This document shows, piece by piece, positions 12,452 to 57,594 of a DNA stretch of 64,000 nt. The position numbers were made by a program, and so were the translations under genes. This DNA comes from a virus: IMG/VR virus record IMGVR_UViG_3300027899_000008; one strand, written 5' to 3'. Under the pieces are notes generated by a model. It searched no databases, was not told the origin of the DNA, and was given only the letters and a program-made list of their open reading frames with translations. Positions within the stretch are counted from its first letter, which is position 1. Each line of letters begins with the position of its first letter.

Positions 12452-13021
12452 TACATTGATTTCATAATGGGTATAAGAGAATGTACATGTCGCGACTACT
12501 GCGTCAGTATCAGTCAATGCGCTATCAAAATCTATTCCAGATAGGAATGTAGGAAACATATTCTGATATGTTACAGAGATAATTGGTTTATACTTGCTGT
12601 CTGTTATCAACATCAATCCAGTCGCTACTTTTTGATGTTCTTCAATATGTTCACCTGTTGTATCATAAGAAATTCCAATTTGCCTTATCCATTCATATAT
12701 CTCTAACCAATTTGCTAGATTTTCATCAACTATGAATCCAACTTGAAGGTCTTCGTAGTTATATGCTGTTCCTGGTCTTTTAATGACCACACCGCCAGGT
12801 TGAGATTGAATGGAAACACCAAAACTAAGTGAAGGAATATTTGCTCGTTGGCAAAAATAAGTGACCGTTGGGCAACGAGTTATTCTAAATTGAAACTTAT
12901 TGTTAGTAAGAAAATTAGTATTGGTTGGTTGATTTGGACTTGTAGTATACAAATCGCCTGGAGTCCAAAATCCAAGTTTCTTAATAATATCATCGTATGT
13001 CTGAAATTCTGATTCTGCCAT
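12437..13021 (-). CDS. gp3: Tail completion/sheath stabiliser gp3 (likely start MAESE at 13021)
   Basis: NFLTNNKFQF, YFCQRANIP, FIVDENLANW, FPTFLS; follows gp23. Confidence 0.88.
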   Translation of the reverse strand: MAESEFQTYDDIIKKLGFWTPGDLYTTSPNQPTNTNFLTNNKFQFRITRCPTVTYFCQRANIPSLSFGVSIQSQPGGVVIKRPGTAYNYEDLQVGFIVDENLANWLEIYEWIRQIGISYDTTGEHIEEHQKVATGLMLITDSKYKPIISVTYQNMFPTFLSGIDFDSALTDTDAVVATCTFSYTHYEINVLTNP

Positions 13022-13026
13022 ACTAG

Positions 13027-13034
13027 TATTTATA
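13027..13034 (-). promoter_or_regulatory. Late promoter TATAAATA for gp3
   Basis: Exact match, 5 nt upstream of ATG 13021. Confidence 0.7.
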
Positions 13035-21214: not shown

Positions 21215-24091
21215 TTAAAACAAACCACTATAATTATCCATGTCTTTAATATGTAGATTAAGTGATATTTTGATATCTTTTTTATCTTGTATCAACCATC
21301 TGTCTACTCCATCTCCGGTCCAATTATCCTCTTCTTCTTGAATTGAGATGTCTTCAGAACCATCATCATAATATCCAAATGGCAGCAAATCATCTTCAAT
21401 CTTTTCGATTTCGCGAGAATACATCGCAAGACGAACATCCATATCGGTTAGATTCTTAAAGAAGTCCTGTCGTGTACACCAAGCAAACATTGTGAGGCAT
21501 GATACTAAATCGTCATTGTGTCCATCATCTGCTTCATAACTATTTTTTCTAGCAACGAATGTCGTTAATTCATTGATGATATCAAAATCTTCAATGATTA
21601 ATTTATCTTCTTCAACTAGATTCTTTAAAACTGCACATCCTACCTTTTTAGTAACTACAGATGCCTTCAATCCAAGATGATTTTGTTTTGCGCCACCAAA
21701 TCCTTCGGTGATGACCTGTCCTTTTCTTCCTAGGAAACTTGTCTTGATTATATGTTCATATTCCAAGTCAGTATGTAAAATATCAGCAACCTGAGAACCA
21801 ATGTCATTTATCTCAACCATAACATACGCATTGTTATACTTCTTGGCAACGGTCTTTATCATCGATGGGTATAGCAATGGAGATATTGTATTATTTCTAT
21901 ATGTAGCAACTATTCTGTAAGGAAATTGAGTGACATCAACGACTACGAATGCGCTATAATCCTTTCCCTGTCCCCGAGCAGTATCGACCGTTATGAAATA
22001 AATATGGTCGTGAGTCTTGGCATCTTCATTTTCCCGTATTGGTTCTTCATAAATGGTGAGTCCTTCCTTTGTTCTCAATAAGGGTTTGGAAAAAACCAGT
22101 GTGTGTAATTTTTGGGAAGATATGAGTGTATTGGATGAACCTACGAAATCGCACTCAAACTCGCTCTGAAATTGCTTTTCCGAAGTCTTGCTAATCATCT
22201 CTTGTTTCCACTTGTCTGTTCTAAGTGGACCACCTGGATATAATGGAACCTGACTCCAGTGAACTTCTACTGGAACATAACCATTTTGTTTGTTGATAGC
22301 ACCCTTCCAATAGTAATAGAACATATTCAACCCATTTGGGGTTGAGATTATAAACATCTTGGTTGATTGACCCGATGTAATCGTAGGATATACGGATGAA
22401 AAGAAGTCTTCGGCAATTTGAATGGGAATGTGGGCAAATTCATCGAGCAGGATACAATTGCTGATTCGAACTCCATTTGCATAATATGATGTGTGTTCTT
22501 CGACTTCCATCAAATCATAGACATCCACTACACCCCAATCTTCAACACCCAATACACAAACATCACCATCACATCCATCAACAAATTCTCCAACCCTCAA
22601 AGACATAGCAGAAACAAAACCTCTGTCTGACGACATTATTTTGTGATCCGATGTGCAGATTAGTTCTTCATTGTTTTCAAATGTTACTTTAATAGTTTTT
22701 TGATTTGGTGCTTTACTTATTCCGTGGAACTTTTTAAATCCTGTATGAGTAAGTACTTCCCATCTACCATCTTCGTCCCCTTGTTCCAAGCACCACCTTG
22801 TCGCTCTATTCGAGCAATCGCTGCTAATCGCATCTTCTCTTTTGCTTCGGGAGATCGTTTCATTCCACGATGCTTTTCTGCTGTCTTTCGAATTTTCTCT
22901 GGATTCTTGTTGATTTTGTCGGAGTGTTCTTTGGTCTTCTTTACTCCCTTGAGGAGTTTCGATATATGTTCCCCAAATTCCTTTGGCCGAATCATCCCCA
23001 ATAATCGACCTTTGTTCGCATCTGATATTTTCTTTCTTGTTGCTTCTGTATTTTTCTTGCCTTTGTGTCGCTCTGAAATTTTTTGCTTGGTTTCTTCGGT
23101 GTGTTTCATTCCTGTTCGCATTAGTCTTCTTGCTTCCGAATAGTTTTTCTTGACTTCCAACAAAGCACTCGGTGGTAATTTTACTTGGGTTCCCTGTCGT
23201 CCAGTTACCATCTTGTGATAAGCATGACACATCTTGGCCTTCTCTATTCCATCCAAGAAGTGCGGCAGAAGTCGATGTGCTAACAAATGTTCTCGTATTG
23301 TCAGAACTACTATGTTCGCCTTGATGTTTGCTCCACCCAATGATTTTGGAATTATGTGATGTTTCTCTGTTGATATCAAATCTACCATAACACGATTTTG
23401 CCCATTCTCCATAAGGGAAAAGTACCACTTCTTGTATTTGTTGTCTATCATTTCCATATTCATATATATGATTATGGTTATTTCTAGACGAGTTCGCATA
23501 TAACTCTCCGATGGTAGTGTGAATCACCTCATCAGTAAGTGTATTTTTAATTATCAGTTTACTATTAGCAGATATACAATTAAAGGAACCGCCACGAATA
23601 GCAGAGGAAGAAGTAGCACTTGCTAGAATCTTGGAACCATTCTCCAACATAATGGAACCTTTGTTCCATTCGACTACGCCCTGCTGTAACCATTTGGGAA
23701 GATATTCAAATGCCATCTTGATTCTGCTTAGAATTTCAATAGCGGTTGCTTGCTTATTTGCTAGAATCGCAACATTCACATTTTGATTAAATAGAACATA
23801 ATGAAGAAGATACGACCCAACCGTAGTTGTTTTTCCAGTTTGTCTTGGAAGTTTTCCAATTACGAATCGATTATCATGTAATGTCTTAATTAAAGATTCC
23901 TGATAATTATACATGTTGAAGGGAACTAATCCCTGATCGACAGCAACAATCTTAACATAATTCTTAATGAAATATATTGGGTCATTTGAGCATTTTATAT
24001 ATTCTTGAACTTGTTCTGGAGTAAATTGCTGTTGAACACCAACAGGTTTAAGATTTGGGTTACCTAAATATCCATCTTTATGTTTCGTCAT
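21215..24091 (-). CDS. gp17: Large terminase gp17 precursor containing an intein (584 aa after splicing)
   Basis: YLGNPNLK, PRQTGKT Walker A, ILLDEFAH Walker B, ISTPNG, nuclease VDTARG and DDLV motifs. Confidence 0.97.
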   Translation of the reverse strand: MTKHKDGYLGNPNLKPVGVQQQFTPEQVQEYIKCSNDPIYFIKNYVKIVAVDQGLVPFNMYNYQESLIKTLHDNRFVIGKLPRQTGKTTTVGSYLLHYVLFNQNVNVAILANKQATAIEILSRIKMAFEYLPKWLQQGVVEWNKGSIMLENGSKILASATSSSAIRGGSFNCISANSKLIIKNTLTDEVIHTTIGELYANSSRNNHNHIYEYGNDRQQIQEVVLFPYGEWAKSCYGRFDINRETSHNSKIIGWSKHQGEHSSSDNTRTFVSTSTSAALLGWNREGQDVSCLSQDGNWTTGNPSKITTECFVGSQEKLFGSKKTNANRNETHRRNQAKNFRATQRQEKYRSNKKENIRCEQRSIIGDDSAKGIWGTYIETPQGSKEDQRTLRQNQQESRENSKDSRKASWNETISRSKREDAISSDCSNRATRWCLEQGDEDGRWEVLTHTGFKKFHGISKAPNQKTIKVTFENNEELICTSDHKIMSSDRGFVSAMSLRVGEFVDGCDGDVCVLGVEDWGVVDVYDLMEVEEHTSYYANGVRISNCILLDEFAHIPIQIAEDFFSSVYPTITSGQSTKMFIISTPNGLNMFYYYWKGAINKQNGYVPVEVHWSQVPLYPGGPLRTDKWKQEMISKTSEKQFQSEFECDFVGSSNTLISSQKLHTLVFSKPLLRTKEGLTIYEEPIRENEDAKTHDHIYFITVDTARGQGKDYSAFVVVDVTQFPYRIVATYRNNTISPLLYPSMIKTVAKKYNNAYVMVEINDIGSQVADILHTDLEYEHIIKTSFLGRKGQVITEGFGGAKQNHLGLKASVVTKKVGCAVLKNLVEEDKLIIEDFDIINELTTFVARKNSYEADDGHNDDLVSCLTMFAWCTRQDFFKNLTDMDVRLAMYSREIEKIEDDLLPFGYYDDGSEDISIQEEEDNWTGDGVDRWLIQDKKDIKISLNLHIKDMDNYSGLF
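22457..23578 (-). mobile_element. Intein, 374 aa, in gp17 immediately before Walker B
   Basis: Starts with Cys (CISANSKL, block A) after GGSFN; block B CTSDH; block F VYDL; ends GVRISN; +1 residue is Cys of CILLDE. Excision restores IRGGSFN-CILLDEFAH. Confidence 0.93.
22717..23499 (-). CDS. HNH homing endonuclease with NUMOD3 repeats, overprinted in the +1 frame inside the intein
   Basis: EKHHIIPKSLGG.N...NIVVLTIREHLLAH HNH core; HTEETKQKISERHKG / NTEATRKKISDANKG / RSPEAKEKMR NUMOD3-like repeats; GGAG 6 nt before ATG 23499 (alternative ATGs at 23463 and 23457). Confidence 0.88.
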   Translation of the reverse strand: MRTRLEITIIIYMNMEMIDNKYKKWYFSLMENGQNRVMVDLISTEKHHIIPKSLGGANIKANIVVLTIREHLLAHRLLPHFLDGIEKAKMCHAYHKMVTGRQGTQVKLPPSALLEVKKNYSEARRLMRTGMKHTEETKQKISERHKGKKNTEATRKKISDANKGRLLGMIRPKEFGEHISKLLKGVKKTKEHSDKINKNPEKIRKTAEKHRGMKRSPEAKEKMRLAAIARIERQGGAWNKGTKMVDGKYLLIQDLKSSTE

Positions 24092-27623: not shown

Positions 27624-29210
27624 CTATTCAATTACAATTCTTCTAAAAAAACTAAATTTTGCTTTTGTATTTTTTGGAATCAACAGAGTATTATATGTCA
27701 AGGCATATGTGCTATATTTATATTTCTTCTTCAATGATTGAGCATATATCATTCCACTATTGTTGATTTGAACTTTATTGCTATTGTTATTTATATAGTT
27801 TGAATTGAACATTGTGGAAGAATAATAATATCCATTCATTTCATCAGAAAATGTTTCTTCATGAGTAGTTAAATAATTTGCGTAGAAATATAATTCATAT
27901 AGAGATGGAATATAATAATCAATGAATCCATTTCTAGGTTTATACTTTATGGTATTTGTCAACTTAGTCTTGATTCCACTAAATGTTAGATTATTTCCAT
28001 ATGTGTTGTAATATCCATCCCACAATGATGTATTATAATAGATGTCATTTTCATCTTCCTCAACGAATGGAATATTGATATTGTGAGTCATGTCAACGAT
28101 GACTGCCCACTTCTTATCAGTTCCTCCTACTCCAATATTCTGAGGATAATGAGTAGATGCTAGGTCAAAATCAATATTTCCATATAATGCCGACCCCTTT
28201 GGATTAACTGGAGAACCAGGTTCATATATTCCAATATAGATTCCACCTTGATATTCCATTCCTATTTCCAACTTCAGAGAATCAAAATCTTCCTGTGTTA
28301 TTCTCTGTGAATCGTATGTATTTTGAATCTTTGTTGGATTCGTCGGTGTATAGGTATCATTACAGAATGGATTTATTGGATACTGAGATTCAACCCAATA
28401 TCCAGTAGCACAAAGCGATTCTGGTGTTATATTACAGGTATATTCATATGACTTTGTATCACTTGATAACTCCAAGGTATAGCAGGAACCAAAGGGTGAG
28501 TTCTTGTATGCCGTTGATTTGTTCATCATTTGTGCTAGTGATCTGTTTCCCGAGCAATTTGCCATTCCCCCAGTACCACCATTCAATCTATATAAAGATT
28601 GATTACATGCTGCTGTAACTCCATAGATTGCGGGATTTGATAATGAACCTAATGCTGCGCATTCTGATGAGAGACAGACATTATCACAGATGACATCAGT
28701 TGGAAATCCTGTCTCTGGATCTCGTGATATGTGGCAACATGCTCTTGGATATCTCGCATCAATCACAAGATTGTCACCAAATTCTGGTGCTGGTTTATAG
28801 CAATACTCTGCTATATTATTAACATTCAAGGTTATACTTGTTTCTGATGTTGGAGTGAACTTTCCCCTTATTCGTTCACATTCACATCGTGATACATTAC
28901 ATACCACTCCAGAATCAAGATATAACCCTCCTGATGCTGTAGGACTTGTTGTGAAATCCCACGGATATGAAAGAAGAGAAGTATCATCCACGAATGAACA
29001 AGCACAGCAACAACCCCTTTCAGTGACGACTCCTGGACAATTTACCGCATCAAGGTTTTCTCCTGGAAAATAATTTCCACCATCATCAAAGCAATCATAG
29101 AATGCCTTGAGTGATTTATTTCCATCCTTATCGCAGCACACACCAATTCCATTCAAAACCTTTGAATAGTCTATTGTTGATTTGATTCGTGAACGAAATT
29201 GAATGGACAT
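27624..29210 (-). CDS. Cys-rich repeat protein with a C-terminal DUF1566/Lcl-like domain; putative tail appendage
   Basis: GVCC/GCCC/RACC repeats; IGMEYQGGIYIG; DYYIPSLYEL...YYSST...FFRRI. Confidence 0.6.
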   Translation of the reverse strand: MSIQFRSRIKSTIDYSKVLNGIGVCCDKDGNKSLKAFYDCFDDGGNYFPGENLDAVNCPGVVTERGCCCACSFVDDTSLLSYPWDFTTSPTASGGLYLDSGVVCNVSRCECERIRGKFTPTSETSITLNVNNIAEYCYKPAPEFGDNLVIDARYPRACCHISRDPETGFPTDVICDNVCLSSECAALGSLSNPAIYGVTAACNQSLYRLNGGTGGMANCSGNRSLAQMMNKSTAYKNSPFGSCYTLELSSDTKSYEYTCNITPESLCATGYWVESQYPINPFCNDTYTPTNPTKIQNTYDSQRITQEDFDSLKLEIGMEYQGGIYIGIYEPGSPVNPKGSALYGNIDFDLASTHYPQNIGVGGTDKKWAVIVDMTHNINIPFVEEDENDIYYNTSLWDGYYNTYGNNLTFSGIKTKLTNTIKYKPRNGFIDYYIPSLYELYFYANYLTTHEETFSDEMNGYYYSSTMFNSNYINNNSNKVQINNSGMIYAQSLKKKYKYSTYALTYNTLLIPKNTKAKFSFFRRIVIE

Positions 29211-45172: not shown

Positions 45173-48100
45173 TTATGATTCCTCAAATCCAGTTGCTCCC
45201 CGCGCGTAGAGAGATAAAAACAATTTATTAAAGTGTAAGGAGTTCAATCCCATTGTAATTCCACCCTTCATACATGTGTATAGAAGTTCAAATTCAGATT
45301 GTTCTGGAGTTCCATTCCAATAGTTCTGAGGTGGAGTTAATGGACTTCTTCTGTTTACGAATGGTGTGTTGGAAACTACAGGGTGATATGTAGTTCTTTC
45401 AGTAGTTATTGTTATTATTCCAGTAGCAGTATTAGTTGTTGCTATTACCTTGGAATATAAATCAGTAGTCATCCACATACCACCATCATCCATATGTAAT
45501 ATGACACCATTGCTATCTACAAGAGTTGTGCTTACTTCCTGTGGAGTGACTCTCCATAGGATGGTTCCATTTGTTGTTGGAGCACCACTAATAAGAACCC
45601 GTTTAGTAAAATTAATTCTACTAGAATCAATAGTTTTGGATATAGCACCACCAAGACGAGCATTCACTTCAATCATCAAAGTGTTCAATTCGTTTACTGC
45701 GGTAGTTCTATCTGTGGTGTTCCCAAAATTATTAAATAGCAAAAATGCTTCAATTCCAGTCAAGCAACAATGTCGTATCATTTCATTATATAATTTACGA
45801 GATTGGTCCGACGTATTCCACTGAGGGTGGAATCCAGTATCACCACTCCAATATTTATTACAAATCCATGGACGTAGTTTTCCTGTAGTGTTTCTTCTGG
45901 CAGTTCTCAATGTATGAATAGAAATCAATAAGTTATTCCATGCAGTATTTGTAAATGGTGTGGTGTCGTCATAACCTATTCTTACAATTCTGGTTGGATC
46001 TGATGTTAATACACCATAAGCATCTGGAAAACCCCAAGAACCAAATATTTCTGGAGAAGAGGCATCTCCCGAAATAGTCTCCTGCATGTATGGATGTCCA
46101 TTATGATTATATGCTTCTTGCGTAGTTCCTGGATGAATAATTATATCTCCAAAATTAGACACACTGGCATGTTGCCAAATAGCATTTGTTGTAGATGTTA
46201 ATGTATCCTTGATTAATGCGGATCTAATGCCCCTCATAGCTCTATCCCAATAGAGAAAATTCTTATCTATCTGTGGATGATATGCACCATTTACAATATG
46301 CGTTATACCAAAAGGATAGTTTCCATTATCTGTAAGTAATGATGAGAAAGTGGCGCCCTTCCACATCGAATTATAATTTGCATTACTAGTAATTCCAAAT
46401 ACTTGCGCTGTCCAATCGGGGGAAAATGGTGTTACAGCACCAGCTAGACCATCACCCTTATATTTGGAGAAGAAATCCCCACTTTGCTCTAAGTCTAAGG
46501 TGATATAATCTGGATTTGCTCCTGACTCAGCTAGAGCATTCGCAACAATATTCCAGTCATTTGTTAATGTTATTCCAACAGCATCTGCCCATGGAGATTG
46601 TTTTCCATTTGCAAATCTATCCGCAACCTCATCATAAATCGGACCCTGGTTGTATCTAACAAGATAATACATTCTCTTTCCAGCAGTAATGGAATTCAAT
46701 TTGCTAACTATGTTTGTTATTCTTGCAAGACACACACCATTACCATTTACAAAATTCTGCGCAGTGGAATTCTCATATCCACCATCACCAGCACAATCGA
46801 ATACCTTGACCATAGGTTTGACATATTCGTATATGTTGACATCTCCCATATCTTCAGCAGCAGACACGTCTGCGGCAATTGTTGGATCAGTTGGTGCTAA
46901 ACTTGCTACCCATATGCTATTTCTTGGTGCGTATATGGTTCCATCATATGGAGCAACATTATCTTCCATGCCCATCATATATGTTAATCCAAGAGTGCGG
47001 TCATACCAACCAGAATGTGGTGTGCTGTATGGTGGTGCAAAATATGCTAACCCATTATGAATATAATCTAATATACTCATATTCAACGCAAGTAGAGTTG
47101 GATATAAGTAAAATAATCTGAATCTTCGGTCATAATTCCATGGAACTCCACCATTGGTGTCGAAATAGGTTCCAGATATTTTCTTATATCGCAATATACC
47201 AGCATTCAATTCAATGAATGAATTATAAAAGAATGGATATCCATCAAGCGTCTGCGCTTGCGCTGCGCGTGGGTTCTCTGATGCAAATATTTCTCCAAGA
47301 TCTGAAGTCCCGCATACTCCTCGTTTCCAAATGGAATCCGAATATGTGAATCCTCTTTTTCTTTGCCCAAGAAGCATCTGACTTGAATTAGACCACAAAT
47401 CTGCGGCAATATTATCATCCAAGCACCAATGCCTTGGATTTGGATCTCCGAGATATCTGCTTTGGTCTGTGTTCGTTGGATCGGTTCCATCTGCCACAAT
47501 ATCATGTTTGAACATATATTGACCAAATGTCTCAATACCCATTATTACACCACTATTAGCATTTGCCGAGGATCCTCTTGTATAATTGTATTGATCCTTA
47601 AACCAAGTTACTGGTATATTTTCAACATAACTAATTCCAGATGGTGTTATATTACGCCAAGCAGTATATCCTGGAGCCTGATATAAATGGAATGTTCTTT
47701 CCAATGGAGCAGATGCGTCCATGAATATATGCGCAAATCCATCATGTGGAGATTTAAATTTATCTTTCCAGTGAGAAACAGAAGCATTCAATCTCCAGTT
47801 AAAATATTCAACATTGGAAGGAATTGTTGGATCTTTGTATAACATCCATGGAATTGTGTATTCTTGTATTGGTCCGTATGGTAGATTTCCAAGATAAGCG
47901 ATAAATTCAATTTTATCGTTCCAACCATTTGATATTCGGTCTAAATCATCAATTAATCTTTGACCCAATGGATATGATAGTCCAATTTGATTGCTTGACA
48001 ATCCATTCCAATATCCAGCTGGTATACCTGTCACAATAAAATCGCCAACTAAATTAGGTGGGGTTTTGCTAAATGCGTTACCATTATTCATCACCATAGT

Positions 48101-50149
48101 TCGTTCATTGAAATTCAAAACAAGTCCGGATCCAAACCATCCATTAGACCAAGTTATTCCATCTGTATAAGGAATCCATGGGGAACCTACTGATACTGCT
48201 TGAGTATATCCAACCTGTCGTGTATAAGATGGAAATATAGCAACATATCCAGCAGGATATGTTAGTTCAGAATATGTGGTATTTAAATGGATGTCTCCAA
48301 CTCCATCAACCAATATTCCGTTATTCTCAATGCGTGTCTTAGTTGGATCCGATAATAAATCTCGTAATGTTGCCTTTTCATTTATAATTAAATATTGATC
48401 AAATCTAAAATGATCACCAGCATAGTTTCTAGTCATCCATGGAAATGATCTCCATTTTCCTTCTCCACTACCGCTAGTGGTTTGTGGAGTTTGAAAATAT
48501 CCATAAGGATTATATATGACATATCGTTGAACGCCGTTTGCGTGTGCGGTAGTAAGATTCAATGAAATTATTTTGGAAATATGTCTGTCTGGATCATTAA
48601 ATTTATCTTGATATCTAAAGTTTTTGCTAAGATCAAAGAATGTATTCGCTGGTCCACCTATATCATAATATACATCTTGTGCTATTGTTGAATCATACCA
48701 CTCTACAAATTTTAGATTTGCTTTTTCTGGACTTCTTGCTCGTTCAAATGGTCTATATGCGGTTCTCACAGCTGTAGCATATGTTCGTGGATGTATGATT
48801 GGGTTAAACCAACCAGCAGACGCTCCCGAAGTTCCTGGATGTGCTACAAATTGGAATGCATTCATGACAGCACCACCAGTAGTAAATGGATTAGCAGCTG
48901 CTGAGATACCGAGCAACTCTAGAGTTGCTGATCTTCCTGCGGTTTCTGTTGCGGCAGACCAACCTGGTTCGTAACGATTGATTAAATATTTGAATGTGGT
49001 ATCAAATTGTGTTGTGAATGGAACATTACACTCAGTGCAGGTAAGTCCAGTATTTGGACTAGTTGTTTCGATATTGTCATAACACAGGTCAAAAAAGTAG
49101 CTCAATGGTATATCCTTGAAGTTATATCCTGTTATATTACTATTCGCCCAGTTTGGAAATGCGAATGTTGGAGAAGCAAGAGTTCCATATGATGCGCCAT
49201 CACATCCAACACAAGGTTCTAATCCATAAATTGCTTTTCCTTGTGTAAAATCTATTTCATTATTTGTATAATCGTATGAAAATCCATATGGAGCATAGTT
49301 TCTTATGAATGTTCTTTCACATACCTCAGATAAATCATAATCTGTTTGAGAACCACTATAGTCCTCAAGAGTTTTTTCATATATCACCTTAAGACCAGCA
49401 GGATGTGCCAATGTCTTGTAGGTGTCCTTATAATAACTAGACTTAATTCCTACCTTGAGCAAATATGAATAATCTTGATAAAAATTACCATCCTGCATTC
49501 TAGAGAAGTTCAGACAACTTCCGCTAAGTGTTTGTAATACATCATAGGAACCAGTTCCACCTGGAAATGAAAAAATCTCATTATAGAATCTACCACCATT
49601 TAATCTCAATAGATATTTTTTAGGTAATTCAACCTTGACATCTTCTTGAGGAATAGCAAACAAGGTCTTGAAGAAGTATCTTATTCCATCAATGGTTGTT
49701 TTCTTCTGATGAAAGTTCTTTCTTACACCATGAATGAAATTTCTAGCATTGTCTACCTCTATCTTGCCACCATATGGAACAAGACTGCTAGATGACAATC
49801 CATCAGCGTATATTCCAGCAAGTCTTCCAACATACGCTTCTCTGGTCTTGTCTATATCGATTAGATCCAGAAGTTTAAGTCCTAATTGATATTCTGATCC
49901 ACCTTCAGCGTCACAATATAACCAATCATAGTATTTTTGAATCAAATCAAAGATTGATATTGGATTTTTCCCCGCATCTTCCAATTCTTCTTTTTCAAAA
50001 ACAACCCACAATGGTATTTGATTTGTTATATCCTTCTTGGTATCACATGTGTCTGTAAATAAACCAATTAAAGACTCAGCATCAAATAACCTTGATAATT
50101 TGTTAGTAACTGAGTTGGTATCTGTGGATTGTGGTATAAAGGGTATCAT
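45173..50149 (-). CDS. gp7: Baseplate wedge gp7-like N-terminus fused to about 1280 aa of uncharacterised aromatic-rich sequence
   Basis: QDGNFYQDYSYLLK...HPAG motif; lies between gp6 and gp8. Confidence 0.7.
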   Translation of the reverse strand: MIPFIPQSTDTNSVTNKLSRLFDAESLIGLFTDTCDTKKDITNQIPLWVVFEKEELEDAGKNPISIFDLIQKYYDWLYCDAEGGSEYQLGLKLLDLIDIDKTREAYVGRLAGIYADGLSSSSLVPYGGKIEVDNARNFIHGVRKNFHQKKTTIDGIRYFFKTLFAIPQEDVKVELPKKYLLRLNGGRFYNEIFSFPGGTGSYDVLQTLSGSCLNFSRMQDGNFYQDYSYLLKVGIKSSYYKDTYKTLAHPAGLKVIYEKTLEDYSGSQTDYDLSEVCERTFIRNYAPYGFSYDYTNNEIDFTQGKAIYGLEPCVGCDGASYGTLASPTFAFPNWANSNITGYNFKDIPLSYFFDLCYDNIETTSPNTGLTCTECNVPFTTQFDTTFKYLINRYEPGWSAATETAGRSATLELLGISAAANPFTTGGAVMNAFQFVAHPGTSGASAGWFNPIIHPRTYATAVRTAYRPFERARSPEKANLKFVEWYDSTIAQDVYYDIGGPANTFFDLSKNFRYQDKFNDPDRHISKIISLNLTTAHANGVQRYVIYNPYGYFQTPQTTSGSGEGKWRSFPWMTRNYAGDHFRFDQYLIINEKATLRDLLSDPTKTRIENNGILVDGVGDIHLNTTYSELTYPAGYVAIFPSYTRQVGYTQAVSVGSPWIPYTDGITWSNGWFGSGLVLNFNERTMVMNNGNAFSKTPPNLVGDFIVTGIPAGYWNGLSSNQIGLSYPLGQRLIDDLDRISNGWNDKIEFIAYLGNLPYGPIQEYTIPWMLYKDPTIPSNVEYFNWRLNASVSHWKDKFKSPHDGFAHIFMDASAPLERTFHLYQAPGYTAWRNITPSGISYVENIPVTWFKDQYNYTRGSSANANSGVIMGIETFGQYMFKHDIVADGTDPTNTDQSRYLGDPNPRHWCLDDNIAADLWSNSSQMLLGQRKRGFTYSDSIWKRGVCGTSDLGEIFASENPRAAQAQTLDGYPFFYNSFIELNAGILRYKKISGTYFDTNGGVPWNYDRRFRLFYLYPTLLALNMSILDYIHNGLAYFAPPYSTPHSGWYDRTLGLTYMMGMEDNVAPYDGTIYAPRNSIWVASLAPTDPTIAADVSAAEDMGDVNIYEYVKPMVKVFDCAGDGGYENSTAQNFVNGNGVCLARITNIVSKLNSITAGKRMYYLVRYNQGPIYDEVADRFANGKQSPWADAVGITLTNDWNIVANALAESGANPDYITLDLEQSGDFFSKYKGDGLAGAVTPFSPDWTAQVFGITSNANYNSMWKGATFSSLLTDNGNYPFGITHIVNGAYHPQIDKNFLYWDRAMRGIRSALIKDTLTSTTNAIWQHASVSNFGDIIIHPGTTQEAYNHNGHPYMQETISGDASSPEIFGSWGFPDAYGVLTSDPTRIVRIGYDDTTPFTNTAWNNLLISIHTLRTARRNTTGKLRPWICNKYWSGDTGFHPQWNTSDQSRKLYNEMIRHCCLTGIEAFLLFNNFGNTTDRTTAVNELNTLMIEVNARLGGAISKTIDSSRINFTKRVLISGAPTTNGTILWRVTPQEVSTTLVDSNGVILHMDDGGMWMTTDLYSKVIATTNTATGIITITTERTTYHPVVSNTPFVNRRSPLTPPQNYWNGTPEQSEFELLYTCMKGGITMGLNSLHFNKLFLSLYARGATGFEES

Positions 50150-52251: not shown

Positions 52252-55200
52252 TTAGTATTTATCGTAAATATCCGGATCAAATATAGATTTAGGTTCCTTG
52301 AATTCATTAATATCATAATCAATAGAATCTCTTACCAATGAAAGTGTCATGACATAGTTTTTCAAAGAGTTAAAGTGATGCTGTATGCCAGACACTAACC
52401 ATTTACCAGATACTCTTTTGAATTTTTCTTCTAATAACGGACTATTGTTTACAAATACCTGAACCAGAGAACCAATAAACACATTATCGTTACCACCAAC
52501 GGTTATGGTGATTGCCTGTGCTTGAAGAAGATTGACTTGCGCTTGTCTCAACAGAGGTGCTTTATGACTTGTATCCCAGAATGTAGCATAAGTTCGTGTA
52601 TATTCCAGATATTTAGCAAAGTTCTTTCCCTGTTCAGGACAATTACAACTACATGTCGAATCTGGATTTGACCATTCACATCCCAACCAATCCTTACCCA
52701 GAACCTCTTCTATCAACTTACACTCAGATAGGTCATTATATAACTTATAGAGTTCTAGGTATGTTGGTTCTGCTTCAGTTGGCATTCTATCCTGCGCAGG
52801 GCAGTTACAATACGGGCTAGCAGTACATCCCTGAGATGATACCAGTGGTGGAGTATTTGGATTGGCACACTTCAATCCTAATTCCTCGCACGATCTGGTT
52901 CCTCTGGCAAATACCATGAACTGAAGAGCAAAATTACGATCAAAGAACTCGTATTCTGTATCTACTGGTGGAGTGGTAAGACCATATTCAGTTTCACCAC
53001 TCATGTCATACTTCCACACATCTTCTGTCACCAATGTTGGTCTGTAAAGAAGAGCAGAACCAGCAAGATAGTGCATCAGGGAATCGTTGAAATATTTCTT
53101 GATTCCATCTGGTAGAGTATTCTCAGTATTTGCGGAAATATATGTATTTGGATCAGCATCTTGTAGGAATACTGATAAATCACTATCGCCGAGAATATTC
53201 TCTATATCAATTGTTCCCTTGTTCGCAAGGGTAATCCAGTCTTGGAATTCTGTGCCATACCATGATTTCCAGTATGACGGATTTGCCGTAAATACACCCT
53301 TACCGCCATATAAATCTCTTGCCTTTGTTCTCAAAGATTTAAACATATTGGCAAATCGAATTGGTATGAATAGATTTCTTGGAACAAATATAGACCACCA
53401 AGAACGATGTGGTTTGAGTTTTCTATAACTATTTGGCAGTATGGAAGACCCAACCGCAGACGACCTATAGAGTGGGTCGAACTGCTTTCCCGAACTCATT
53501 CCATAGTGATATAGTGATTCCATCCAATCCTGTGACGGATCTTCGAAATTAAAAGCACCACCATTGTGGAAATCCTGATCCCTGTTTCCTCCATGAATAT
53601 CTTCTTGTGAGTGGTCATATGCGTAGTAGGTATATTGTGTCTCGAATATTGGTTCTGGCCATAAATCCATTCCATTATAATCATTGCTTAAATATTGGGT
53701 CTTTGACAATACAGAGCCAGTATCATGATTCCACCAAGAATAGTAATTTCCACGATCAATTCCAGCAAGTTTGCGGTTAACAGGAATGTCATCCTTGATT
53801 TTTTTAACAGCGACATCAAATCCATATGGGTCCATTCCTATAACTGCTGTGTTATATTTGACCGATTGTCTTCCAAATGGTCCAGGAGTTAATTGTACGA
53901 TATATGGCAAGAAGTATTCTGTACCAGCATCGCGCACAAATCCATCTGGAAATTCTTTAATACGATCCATTCCAATTGGAGTATTGAACTCAACGCGAAT
54001 GTATGAAGTTATTTCTTCCTTCTTCACATTTGGAGGTGTGCTTGTTGCTCCAGTTTGGTAGAAGTTAAAGGTATCTTTCAGGGTTAAAGCAGAAATTGGA
54101 TTCAAATCGCCTTGTGCGAATTCAGTAACCGAAGTCGCAATACCACCAGCAAAATTACCAACATTTGTTATATTTCCAAAATCTGTACTTGGAATATGAA
54201 GCAATCCTACCTCGACATGTTCTTTTCCCCTATATTCCGGACCATACTCCCCCCCCATATTTCTTATTTCTGATCCTAGTTGAAATGCTGGAGAATCTGT
54301 AGAATCTGCGTCTTCAGCACTATACCAGTTATAGGATTCTCTAGAAGTTATGAATGGGTTTTCTTTATATTTCTGATCGTAATATGGATGTGCTGTAGAT
54401 CCTGGATTATTTCCAAAGAAAATGCTATGAACCCATTCACCAGCAGATGCTCCAGTTATACCTTTAGATTTAGAAAGAATTTCATATCTGCTTCCACGAA
54501 TTTCTTTTCTGGTTATCTTTTTAATATTTTCAAGACTTAAATGAGTTTTGGTAACCAATCCCGTTTCTGTATGTGGATTGTTAAATACATTCTCTCCAGG
54601 TTTCTTTGATTGAAAGAATGCTTTTCTATCAAACCATTCCTGATATGAATCAATCCATATTTGCTTGTATGTATTCTGAACATTATCCATCAAGGATGTA
54701 AGCAATTCCATCTCAATATCAATTAATTGTAATTCAGCAATACAAGTCCTTGCGAGTGCTTCAAGAGCAGTTGAACTCAAGCATGTAGTATTATAGCAAT
54801 TTCCAGTAGTAATACATGCTTTGGTAGTGTCTCGAATAGATACATCTACAATTCCAGGAATCAATACATTATTTGTTCCATAATCATAGAATGACGGAAC
54901 AGAATCCTGCGCTGCCCAAAGATATGGAGCAGCATAGACATATATTGGAGAATATGATGCAACTGATGCATCATTGATATGACGAATATATCCACGAACG
55001 ACAGGATCGTTAGAACACAATTTAGGAACATTTAGTTGAACTATATCCTCTTCTGTGGGGATTCCTGAAGGTCCAGTTGGTCCTGTTGGTCCTGTTGGTC
55101 CTAGTATACCATCAGGGTAGATACAATCATTACAACTCTCTACAATAATTCCACCGGTGAATAAACACCATTGGTCATTGATATTTGCTGCACATAGAGG

Positions 55201-57594
55201 AACTCCGGCGCTGATCAGGGAAAAACAACACGAATAAGGATTATCAGGACAAGTAGGACTACTCACTCCATTATAACATCCTGACTGCATACATTGATTT
55301 AAGCTATCAAAGATACACCTAGCATTACCTTCTTCAGCACAATCAGTAGGTACACACAGATTGTTTGTACACGAAAAACACCCAGCGGGATCCGCAGCAC
55401 CACCACCCGCACCACCACCCGCATCACCTGGATCGCTTAATGCCCTGAATTGAGGTGGAGAGTCAGAAGATAAAGCTTCACCTGCTCTAAATGTTATTTG
55501 ACTACTTGTAGGAGTTGATGCTGTTCTAAATTGAGGAATTCCTATACCTTTACCATTTGGTATAGAATTAGATGGAATCATTCCAAATTCATATTCTGTT
55601 ATTGGCCAATCCAGTATGGTTTCTCCTGGAATCGCATCACCCACATATTTGTATCCTTGAACCAAATCAATTGGGCGTTTATGGTCTGAAGTCTTGGGTA
55701 TTAATGATGAAAGTAATATACCATCAGCAATGGTTTTATATGAACTTACATTATTCAGAAAACTCTTAAGTGCTGTTTTTCTGCCATCTAAATGTGTTAT
55801 GAGTATCTGATATTGATTAATAGAACGATCAATCACACCACTAACATAACTAGTGACATCTTCCTTTAGATTAAAGAAGTCTCCGATTGATTCATTGTAT
55901 GGTGATTTAGTTAAATCGTAGGATTGAGTTAACCCATTGAGAAATGTTACTCCAGAATCATAATTCAACTGATCAGTCAGCGATCCTGCTGCTACTATTT
56001 TATATTCCTGATTGAATTCTGCGAACATTCCCGTGGGACCAAACAACATCGTGTATGTTGTTCCTGTGTTTGGTCCTGGATTATTGAACATTTCTATGTC
56101 AGCGGTTGATCCCAACGCACCATCTTGATGGCAGCAGACCGTGCATCTGTAGGTTTCCCATTTTCTCTTAATGTTCTTCTTGCGATTATACTCATCTCTC
56201 TTTTTCTTGAGAGGTTTTCTAATCAAGTTGTGTATCTTATGAAATTCTTTAATCTTTAGATTGCTTAGATCGTATTGTGGTTGCCATGCGATAGAACTCC
56301 AAGGTCCAGATTGTGTATTTCCAATATGATCCCACCATTGAGGAAATGGTGTATTCATTGGTTGTTTGCTCATATAACCATATATCGCGTCATCGTATTG
56401 TTGTGTGGATGGTTTAACCTTTCCAACTTCATTCTTATTTGTGGAATCTATAGTCTTGCTTAGAAATTTCTTATCTCCAACATGATGCCATGAATCATAA
56501 TCCGCATTGTAATCAAAAGTTACATCAGAATATATTAATCCATAGTTGGTGTCAATGAAATCTAGATAAGGGTCATTATAATTTGGATCCACTCTGACAT
56601 ATTGAGCATTTATAGCACCAGATTCATTCAATTCCGTTATATTAAATTGTTTGTCTATATTTAATTGATATATTCTTTTTGGATTAAATGTATCTAGAGT
56701 CACCAAAAATCCATCTACCACTTTGCCTTTTTGATCGCGAATCAACTTATCTACACTCTCAAAGTGCCATCCCTTACGATCATGCCAGAAACTATAATTG
56801 ACAGCATTCGGATTTTCTCGTGAAACCGCATTCTGCGCAATGTAATTTAACAATGGCAATAATCTAAGTTGACCTTTATGCTTCATCCATGGCCATGAAA
56901 CATGGTTATATTTCAACCAAATGCCATTACTGGTAGGTTCGATAAATGATGGAGTTAATTCAAACTTGGCAAAGAGTTCATCGACAAGTCCTTTCATAGG
57001 CTCGGATGTAGTAGATGTAGTGGGTGTGACGGGTATGGCAGGTGATTCTTCTGTTCCACCAATATAACCAACAAAATCTTCCATATTTTCAAGATATGTT
57101 TGCTGATAATTTGAAGTTAGAATATCATTGCTGGTAAATTCAATCTTCCAAATCGAAGAAGTTTCCACCTTCTTCATCTTAATATCTAATTGGGCATCAT
57201 CTGTTACTTTTATTATATTGAATACTCTAAACTCATACATCATACATACGGATTTATCTTCTTGACCTACTAGAGTCTCATTACATCCTAATGTTATCTT
57301 TTCCGTTCCATTTAATACAAATTCATCTCCCCAATTCAAATAATCATAAATGAACAAAACACCATACATGAATGGTGAATTTAAATTCTCATTATATGCC
57401 ATAGATATGAATGGATTTCTAACTCCACGATCACTCCATGGAACCAAATCAAATGTAATGGTTTCTCCCTTATCGTTCACCTTAGAAAACGATAACATTC
57501 CAATCTTGCCCTCAAGAACTGATATACCAATCTGCGTGCTTGAGCTCTCATTGATTCCACTACTTACAAGTTTGTTATATAACTCAGCGTCCAT
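52252..57594 (-). CDS. Giant gp27-like baseplate hub protein with large insertions (Cys-rich, collagen)
   Basis: N-terminus (ENLNSPFMYG, FWHDRKGWHFESVDKL) and C-terminus (GNDNV.IG...SGKWLVSGIQH...LVRDS) resemble hub proteins; follows gp53. Confidence 0.6.
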   Translation of the reverse strand: MDAELYNKLVSSGINESSSTQIGISVLEGKIGMLSFSKVNDKGETITFDLVPWSDRGVRNPFISMAYNENLNSPFMYGVLFIYDYLNWGDEFVLNGTEKITLGCNETLVGQEDKSVCMMYEFRVFNIIKVTDDAQLDIKMKKVETSSIWKIEFTSNDILTSNYQQTYLENMEDFVGYIGGTEESPAIPVTPTTSTTSEPMKGLVDELFAKFELTPSFIEPTSNGIWLKYNHVSWPWMKHKGQLRLLPLLNYIAQNAVSRENPNAVNYSFWHDRKGWHFESVDKLIRDQKGKVVDGFLVTLDTFNPKRIYQLNIDKQFNITELNESGAINAQYVRVDPNYNDPYLDFIDTNYGLIYSDVTFDYNADYDSWHHVGDKKFLSKTIDSTNKNEVGKVKPSTQQYDDAIYGYMSKQPMNTPFPQWWDHIGNTQSGPWSSIAWQPQYDLSNLKIKEFHKIHNLIRKPLKKKRDEYNRKKNIKRKWETYRCTVCCHQDGALGSTADIEMFNNPGPNTGTTYTMLFGPTGMFAEFNQEYKIVAAGSLTDQLNYDSGVTFLNGLTQSYDLTKSPYNESIGDFFNLKEDVTSYVSGVIDRSINQYQILITHLDGRKTALKSFLNNVSSYKTIADGILLSSLIPKTSDHKRPIDLVQGYKYVGDAIPGETILDWPITEYEFGMIPSNSIPNGKGIGIPQFRTASTPTSSQITFRAGEALSSDSPPQFRALSDPGDAGGGAGGGAADPAGCFSCTNNLCVPTDCAEEGNARCIFDSLNQCMQSGCYNGVSSPTCPDNPYSCCFSLISAGVPLCAANINDQWCLFTGGIIVESCNDCIYPDGILGPTGPTGPTGPSGIPTEEDIVQLNVPKLCSNDPVVRGYIRHINDASVASYSPIYVYAAPYLWAAQDSVPSFYDYGTNNVLIPGIVDVSIRDTTKACITTGNCYNTTCLSSTALEALARTCIAELQLIDIEMELLTSLMDNVQNTYKQIWIDSYQEWFDRKAFFQSKKPGENVFNNPHTETGLVTKTHLSLENIKKITRKEIRGSRYEILSKSKGITGASAGEWVHSIFFGNNPGSTAHPYYDQKYKENPFITSRESYNWYSAEDADSTDSPAFQLGSEIRNMGGEYGPEYRGKEHVEVGLLHIPSTDFGNITNVGNFAGGIATSVTEFAQGDLNPISALTLKDTFNFYQTGATSTPPNVKKEEITSYIRVEFNTPIGMDRIKEFPDGFVRDAGTEYFLPYIVQLTPGPFGRQSVKYNTAVIGMDPYGFDVAVKKIKDDIPVNRKLAGIDRGNYYSWWNHDTGSVLSKTQYLSNDYNGMDLWPEPIFETQYTYYAYDHSQEDIHGGNRDQDFHNGGAFNFEDPSQDWMESLYHYGMSSGKQFDPLYRSSAVGSSILPNSYRKLKPHRSWWSIFVPRNLFIPIRFANMFKSLRTKARDLYGGKGVFTANPSYWKSWYGTEFQDWITLANKGTIDIENILGDSDLSVFLQDADPNTYISANTENTLPDGIKKYFNDSLMHYLAGSALLYRPTLVTEDVWKYDMSGETEYGLTTPPVDTEYEFFDRNFALQFMVFARGTRSCEELGLKCANPNTPPLVSSQGCTASPYCNCPAQDRMPTEAEPTYLELYKLYNDLSECKLIEEVLGKDWLGCEWSNPDSTCSCNCPEQGKNFAKYLEYTRTYATFWDTSHKAPLLRQAQVNLLQAQAITITVGGNDNVFIGSLVQVFVNNSPLLEEKFKRVSGKWLVSGIQHHFNSLKNYVMTLSLVRDSIDYDINEFKEPKSIFDPDIYDKY

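Follow-up and report, generated by a model that had tools for sequence, protein, structure and literature searches.

The window analysed here is a 64,000-nucleotide stretch of the viral record IMGVR_UViG_3300027899_000008 and consists of a T4-like structural gene block. [quoted passage not shown] An earlier note, made from the letters alone, had proposed a 374-aa intein in this gene, and this was recovered as described: positions 23578–22457 are stop-free and extend from Cys1 to Asn374, followed by the +1 Cys and Walker B (Table 1). The insertion is in frame at a conserved site and is missing from homologs. The 80 closest exteins in viral_contigs are all intein-free, with an insert length of 0, and the intein-free allele L280 is identical across the insertion site.

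Table 1 Features of gp17 and of its insert, in window coordinates
Feature	Positions	Strand	Remarks
gp17 (TerL) N-extein, 171 aa, with Walker A	23579..24091	-	Pfam Terminase_6N; 94% identity to intein-free L082
Intein N-part, block A, residues 1–29	23492..23578	-	pLDDT 73–90; Cys1 invariant
Inverted, wobble-degenerate copy of Walker B target codons, candidate operator	23481..23501	+	reads FLDEFAY on + strand
Candidate T4-type late promoter box CATATATA	23463..23470	-	13 nt before ATG 23457
HNH-NUMOD3 homing endonuclease gene, +1 frame	22717..23457	-	probable start ATG 23457 (246 aa); alternatives 23451 or 23499
Intein-frame filler, residues 30–269	22772..23491	-	pLDDT <50; stop avoidance; dN/dS; 154 codons missing in natural alleles
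Segment deleted in natural 804-aa allele, ~462 bp between short direct repeats	22774..23235	-	
Intein C-part: blocks N2, B (TxxH), F, G, terminal Asn	22457..22771	-	phmmer 6dsl_B E 1.8e-7; Hint fold
gp17 C-extein: +1 Cys, then Walker B and nuclease domain	21215..22456	-	Pfam Terminase_6C

AlphaFold gave a confident model for intein residues 1–29 and 270–374, which together form a complete Hint fold, and predicted residues 30–269 to be disordered (pLDDT <50), in agreement with the earlier description of a Hint core carrying a domain-less filler. The confident part superimposes on VidaL (6vgw_A; Z 19.6, rmsd 2.0, 137 aligned). C1, T309, H312, and N374 are invariant across the intein alleles and the +1 Cys is present, as in class 1 inteins; the penultimate intein residue is Ser here and His in most relatives. 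By its residues, modelled fold, and insertion, the gp17 insert is a class 1 Hint intein that is predicted to splice. Among PDB sequences, IntC is best matched by CatC (phmmer, 6dsl_B), which represents the C-fragment of the consensus intein of the atypically split TerL type, while a PDB search with the 32-aa IntN, a query too short for this purpose, yielded no match. Atypically split TerL inteins have an IntN of 25–37 aa (PMC11766414), and AceL-TerL, GOS-TerL, and Cat break after block N1 (PMC2677866). Since the window's IntC matches CatC and the insert follows block A, the insert is located at the break of the atypically split inteins. Its placement between blocks A and B had been noticed before and stands: where the canonical layout has an in-frame endonuclease domain between blocks B and F, the in-frame insert is disordered and sits after block A.

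Profile searches on both frames identified the +1 ORF of the filler DNA (23499–22717, 260 aa) as the HNH-NUMOD3 protein that had been proposed for it, with matches to Pfam NUMOD3 (E 3e-8), PHROG 655 homing endonuclease (E 2e-30), and Pfam HNH (E 0.003, under the curated cut-off). Across the HNH alignment the E-H-H-I-x-P motif and two later His are invariant, including the catalytic-type His residues, and the Asn is conserved at 90% or more. Solved HNH domains matched the ORF weakly (E 0.002). The top rows of a Foldseek search with the HNH model were HNH domains, none of them significant (E 0.065 or higher), and VIA-align with the same model returned helical matches only. At its 3' end, the nuclease gene extends over the first codons of IntC. 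The exact ORF product was absent from the protein collection searched. A 147-aa ORF on the plus strand (22700–23143) was taken as a by-product.

Searches of viral and metagenome contigs provided 29 full-length contiguous alleles, window included and some of them near-duplicates, of which the most distant are ~30% identical in the intein frame. All 29 encode the nuclease in the +1 frame and keep the intein frame open, in support of the proposed dual coding. This consistency bears on the most trivial explanation, an assembly or sequencing artefact that frameshifted an ordinary in-frame HNH intein. Nothing was found in its favour, and its probability is practically negligible, because every one of the 29 alleles, although assembled independently, would have to contain a pair of errors that compensate each other. 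An assembly slip is further excluded by the occurrence of the identical 958-aa protein on four contigs and by its 90% cluster, whose 23 members derive from ENA, JGI, and Logan.

The intein frame of the window has no stop at 48 at-risk codon junctions, i.e., those where a silent HNH change could create an intein-frame stop, compared to 18.6 expected (P ~6e-11). The probability of having no stop was 3.5e-9 or lower in 25 of the 27 alleles tested and 7.5e-9 in the other two, and 64 free-standing HNH relatives have 8–28 stops per 150 codons in the corresponding frame. Median dN/dS in the HNH frame is 0.13 (38 non-independent pairs), with substitutions concentrated at HNH third positions, and IntC has a dN/dS of ~0.40 in its own frame. 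Both frames are kept in all of nine near-identical alleles, in which 23 sites vary; the changes are synonymous at 15 of these in the HNH frame (P 8e-6) and at 5 in the intein frame. Purifying selection on the HNH frame and stop avoidance in the intein frame had both been anticipated in the earlier note. An intein-frame dN/dS of 2.6 was rejected as a sign of positive selection because it is a mechanical outcome of the frame offset. As judged from these substitution patterns, the filler is kept stop-free in the intein frame without sequence-level selection of its own.

Strong stop avoidance indicates that the intein frame is translated. It thereby argues against the insert being removed from the RNA as a group I intron, and against a split intein whose IntC has an internal start of its own, in both of which the open frame would be incidental. 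Phage group I introns often carry HNH-NUMOD3 genes, and split alleles are present at the gp17 site; yet the window has no Rfam match, the ORF fills the insert and leaves no space for a ribozyme core, and no conserved start codon precedes IntC, with neither ATG nor GTG there in the window. We consider removal at the RNA level or splitting of this allele very unlikely.

The earlier note had assigned the nuclease its own GGAG-ATG at 23499. The GGAG-N6-ATG is present but is not conserved as a start, as an in-frame ATG occurs there in only three of the alleles compared and others have stops between this position and the conserved start. The likely HNH start, 23457 or 23451, follows a late-promoter-like box. 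In 14 alleles a TA[A/T/C]ATA box lies 28 nt before conserved N-K-Y codons with an ATG 13 nt past the box start, and most of the remaining alleles have a TAAATA box further upstream. ATAAATA is ~19-fold enriched upstream of this phage's genes, and the T4 late promoter box starts at -13 (PMC2988020). From this spacing, the enrichment, and the position of the T4 box we infer a nearly leaderless late transcript; most likely, the window's box drives an HNH transcript that would begin at or near ATG 23457. Most relatives have TATAAATA or CATAAATA in place of CATATATA; the window's box has one mismatch, and this variant is not clearly enriched upstream of the phage's genes. A sigma-70 promoter scan remained at chance level. 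Counting TAAATA upstream of free HNH genes was discarded because the N-K-Y codons of these genes contain the motif.

The imperfect box, the good Shine–Dalgarno sequence before 23499 in the window, and natural in-frame fusions of IntN to HNH (L015/16, L189, L258) would fit a nuclease that lacks its own promoter and is translated from the long gp17 message, by initiation at 23499 or re-initiation, or made as an extein-IntN-HNH fusion by +1 frameshifting. This is unlikely given the rarity of the 23499 ATG, the stops before the conserved start, and the box-to-ATG spacing conserved in 14 alleles. A hairpin that covers the downstream starts in the window's read-through RNA (z -2.7) also argues against it, with the stability of the start-region hairpin being significant in some alleles only.

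Next to the promoter box, the conserved DNA that encodes an N-S-S-R peptide corresponds, in reverse complement, to the L-D-E-F codons downstream of the insertion site. This inverted target copy was found in none of the 64 free-standing HNH genes. A scoring matrix built from intein-free targets alone has its best match at this minus-strand spot in 17/22 overprinted and 6/6 GIY-YIG-fused alleles. The window scores 18.5 bits (shuffles: mean 0.6, maximum 14.9), and since many single-allele scores are within the shuffle range, it is the recurring position that serves as evidence. No copy was found in L013, L246, L015/16, and most of the split alleles whose GIY-YIG gene is free. We propose, with the chances evenly balanced, that the copy is an I-TevI-like operator bound by the HNH protein for self-repression. 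Alternatively, it could be a relic of the cut site of the first insertion, one arm of an RNA hairpin masking the ribosome-binding site, or simply the N-S-S-R codons. Hairpins over the start region of several alleles would agree with this, as would the hairpins and late promoters typical of such genes (PMC2677866). However, the motif has been maintained across codon phases 0, 1, and 2 and beside two nuclease types, HNH and GIY-YIG. It also varies freely at the wobble positions of the target codons, its flanks, which the search pattern does not cover, agree with invariant columns of the target, and it follows changes of the target (IDE in L210, L205, and L214). Further arguments against a non-operator origin are that pairing with downstream RNA is no better than in shuffles (mean helix 6.0 vs. 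5.8) and that the wobble bases do not track the allele's own exon (15/28, 16/28). We regard such an origin as a serious possibility, though not a probable one.

Intein-free, internally deleted, and full gp17 alleles occur in near-identical phages as proteins of 584, 804, and 958 aa, respectively. The intein-free alleles have C-exteins that are 98–100% identical and an intact site. The internally deleted allele has lost 154 codons, including the DNA-binding part of the HNH, while both frames stay in register; the last A of its promoter box is also changed. As the terminase frame is kept despite the loss of 462 bp, most of the filler is dispensable. Two further alleles, L231 and L237, are mini-inteins derived from the overprinted clade. 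Trees placed both the Hint domain and the HNH of the window as sister to those of L163, whereas the window's extein nests among intein-free exteins, far from L163, and a single extein clade for the element was rejected (p-AU 3e-86). Because the intein-free exteins were chosen for their similarity to the window, and because L163 is on a long branch, the tree reveals incongruence, not direction. The patchy distribution fits mobility but could partly reflect loss. At the level of sequence, we regard the element as a real dual-coding mobile intein.

The same gp17 site also carries split inteins with an HNH of the same clade. IntN and IntC are on separate ORFs in the relatives L014, L015, L189, and L258, in contrast to the single open frame of the window, and IntN is fused in frame to HNH in L015/16, L189, L195, L258, and L259. 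Further split forms are an IntN-GIY-YIG fusion and a free nuclease located between IntN and IntC. All TerL-associated HNHs form one clade (starred) apart from the free-standing HNHs, and a single clade of the overprinted HNHs was neither rejected (p-AU 0.39) nor demonstrated; neither the Hint nor the HNH tree revealed an order for overprinted and split alleles. The earlier suggestion that a free-standing HNH gene invaded a contiguous mini-intein is accordingly reduced to one possibility of what may have happened, since the HNH clades with those of split alleles and the trees give no direction. How ~18 expected stops came to be missing at the origin is a matter of guesses, such as an invading gene poor in codons that end in T or a gradual lengthening. 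A doubtful but conceivable reading derives the atypically split TerL inteins, which find use in protein chemistry, from the overprinted form, and lets this form hold a full I-TevI-like circuit of late promoter and inverted target operator inside intein DNA. If so, which we hold to be just as tentative, this one site would preserve overprinted-contiguous, IntN-nuclease split, free-nuclease split, deleted, mini, and empty states.

Overall, the element is very probably a dual-coding selfish element, in which a cis-splicing intein is combined with a separately made HNH endonuclease. The open frames, the selection on HNH, the stop avoidance, the patchy distribution, and the decay by in-frame deletion can be read from the allele comparisons themselves; the steps that follow are the proposed mechanism. 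Ribosomes on the gp17 message would read through the filler, and the Hint halves (residues 1–29 and 270–374) would fold around a disordered loop. Class 1 splicing in cis, with Cys1, TxxH, the terminal Asn, and the +1 Cys, would then release a normal 584-aa terminase. The HNH-NUMOD3 protein would be made separately from the +1 frame, presumably via the internal late-promoter transcript at or near ATG 23457, and would nick or cut gp17 genes that lack the intein, close to their conserved Walker B codons, allowing the element to be copied into such a gene during mixed infection. The HNH might also bind the inverted target copy beside the promoter and, like I-TevI, repress itself, a step for which the case is about even.

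The earlier note had set the out-of-frame nuclease against the usual in-frame domains, but such layouts had already been described (bioRxiv 10.1101/2025.01.02.630785 and 10.64898/2026.09.14.751524). Actinobacteriophages have non-canonical contiguous inteins with out-of-frame EndoVII-like nucleases, which likewise combine an open intein frame, a same-strand nuclease in another frame, and an unstructured in-frame region; their hosts include TerL and the same invasion model was put forward (bioRxiv 10.1101/2025.01.02.630785). In contrast, the nuclease described here is of the HNH-NUMOD3 type, is encoded in frame 2 (+1), and follows block A rather than occupying the usual HEN region, and the element is found in a T4-like phage with a candidate late promoter and operator and with split alleles at the same site. 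HNH plus NUMOD3 also differs from the published out-of-frame types (EndoVII-like, LAGLIDADG, and VSR-like). A cyanobacterial dnaX intein, according to the available part of its description, resembles ours in its overlapping splicing and nuclease ORFs, frame-dependent dN/dS, and full, mini, and empty alleles side by side, but resides in a cellular host gene and encodes a LAGLIDADG nuclease; that part describes no split alleles or operator (bioRxiv 10.64898/2026.09.14.751524).

The atypically split TerL inteins (AceL-TerL, GOS-TerL, Cat, and 6DSL) share the TerL host, the IntC match, and the break after block N1, and in fractured genes the nuclease 3' end likewise overlaps IntC, with a late promoter and hairpin upstream (PMC2677866). 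The window's intein, however, is contiguous, and its nuclease is overprinted on a linker that is read through, not placed between two genes. The ShiLan out-of-frame HNH in phage methylases (PMC11855218) is similarly encoded in another frame of a stop-free insertion and has signs of homing, but no intein is involved there, whereas the filler described here could, as predicted, be spliced out. Autorepression of I-TevI from the T4 td intron (PMC2988022) involves a comparable target-like site beside an internal late promoter and a hairpin that hides the ribosome-binding site; that system is a group I intron with a GIY-YIG nuclease, while the candidate elements of gp17 are within protein-coding intein DNA. 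In our literature search, no HNH-NUMOD3 nuclease turned up at the site of the atypical split. The basic layout is thus known, and what this element adds seems to be its position at the split site, a candidate promoter of its own, and a candidate target decoy.

Although the basic out-of-frame layout is no longer surprising, the gp17 alleles provide a well-sampled natural same-strand overlap of ~245 codons within an essential gene, in which one frame need only stay open. Annotation pipelines miss the overprinted nuclease. The inverted target copy predicts the recognition sequence of this nuclease, and a Cat-family intein that, as predicted, accommodates a loop of 240 residues where the atypical split lies could serve protein engineering. 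With better sampling, the allelic series at this one site would make the origin of split inteins and the gain of endonucleases by inteins testable.

The phages represented by contigs L270-L272 (proteins P0011-P0016) are near-identical to that of the window and carry a natural allele of the intein-bearing terminase gene gp17 with an in-frame deletion of 462 bp. This allele retains the HNH catalytic core and has lost the DNA-binding part, and its candidate promoter box is altered. Elsewhere in the window, at 13021-13034, TATAAATA begins exactly 13 nt upstream of a start ATG. The gene concerned, at 13021, is likely a leaderless late gene and shares the spacing inferred for the HNH gene of the window.

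Antisense ORFs similar in size to that over the HNH gene recur in many alleles and are probably a by-product of lysine-rich codons. A Pfam search of the three large structural-region proteins yielded zero matches. The two-frame N-extein of contig L192 is a frameshift or an assembly error.

Features in the window and in other contigs
Feature	Location	Strand	Remarks
Deleted stretch, L270-L272 allele	window 22774-23235		flanked by short direct repeats
Antisense ORF over HNH	window 22700-23143	+	147 aa
Large structural-region protein	window 27624-29210		528 aa, very Cys-rich
Large structural-region protein	window 45176-50149		1658 aa
Large structural-region protein	window 52255-57594		1780 aa
IntN-HNH fusion, split allele	L259:1992-2782		internal deletion, decaying
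GIY-YIG gene, split allele	L213:1143-2715		interrupted by stops, decaying
Second intein-like match	L208:2663-3370		near first, same region; tblastn
Second intein-like match	L195:2500-2800		near first, same region; tblastn
gp17 N-extein match	L192:1171-1682		split over two frames

The split terminase inteins of eight contigs (L181, L202, L209, L210, L244, L248, L251, and L253) encode an in-frame fusion of the N-terminal intein part (IntN) with a GIY-YIG nuclease. Because several of these fusions have an INKNPEK-type C-terminal module in common with the HNH nuclease of the window, sequence comparison suggests that nuclease domains have been swapped on one DNA-binding module.
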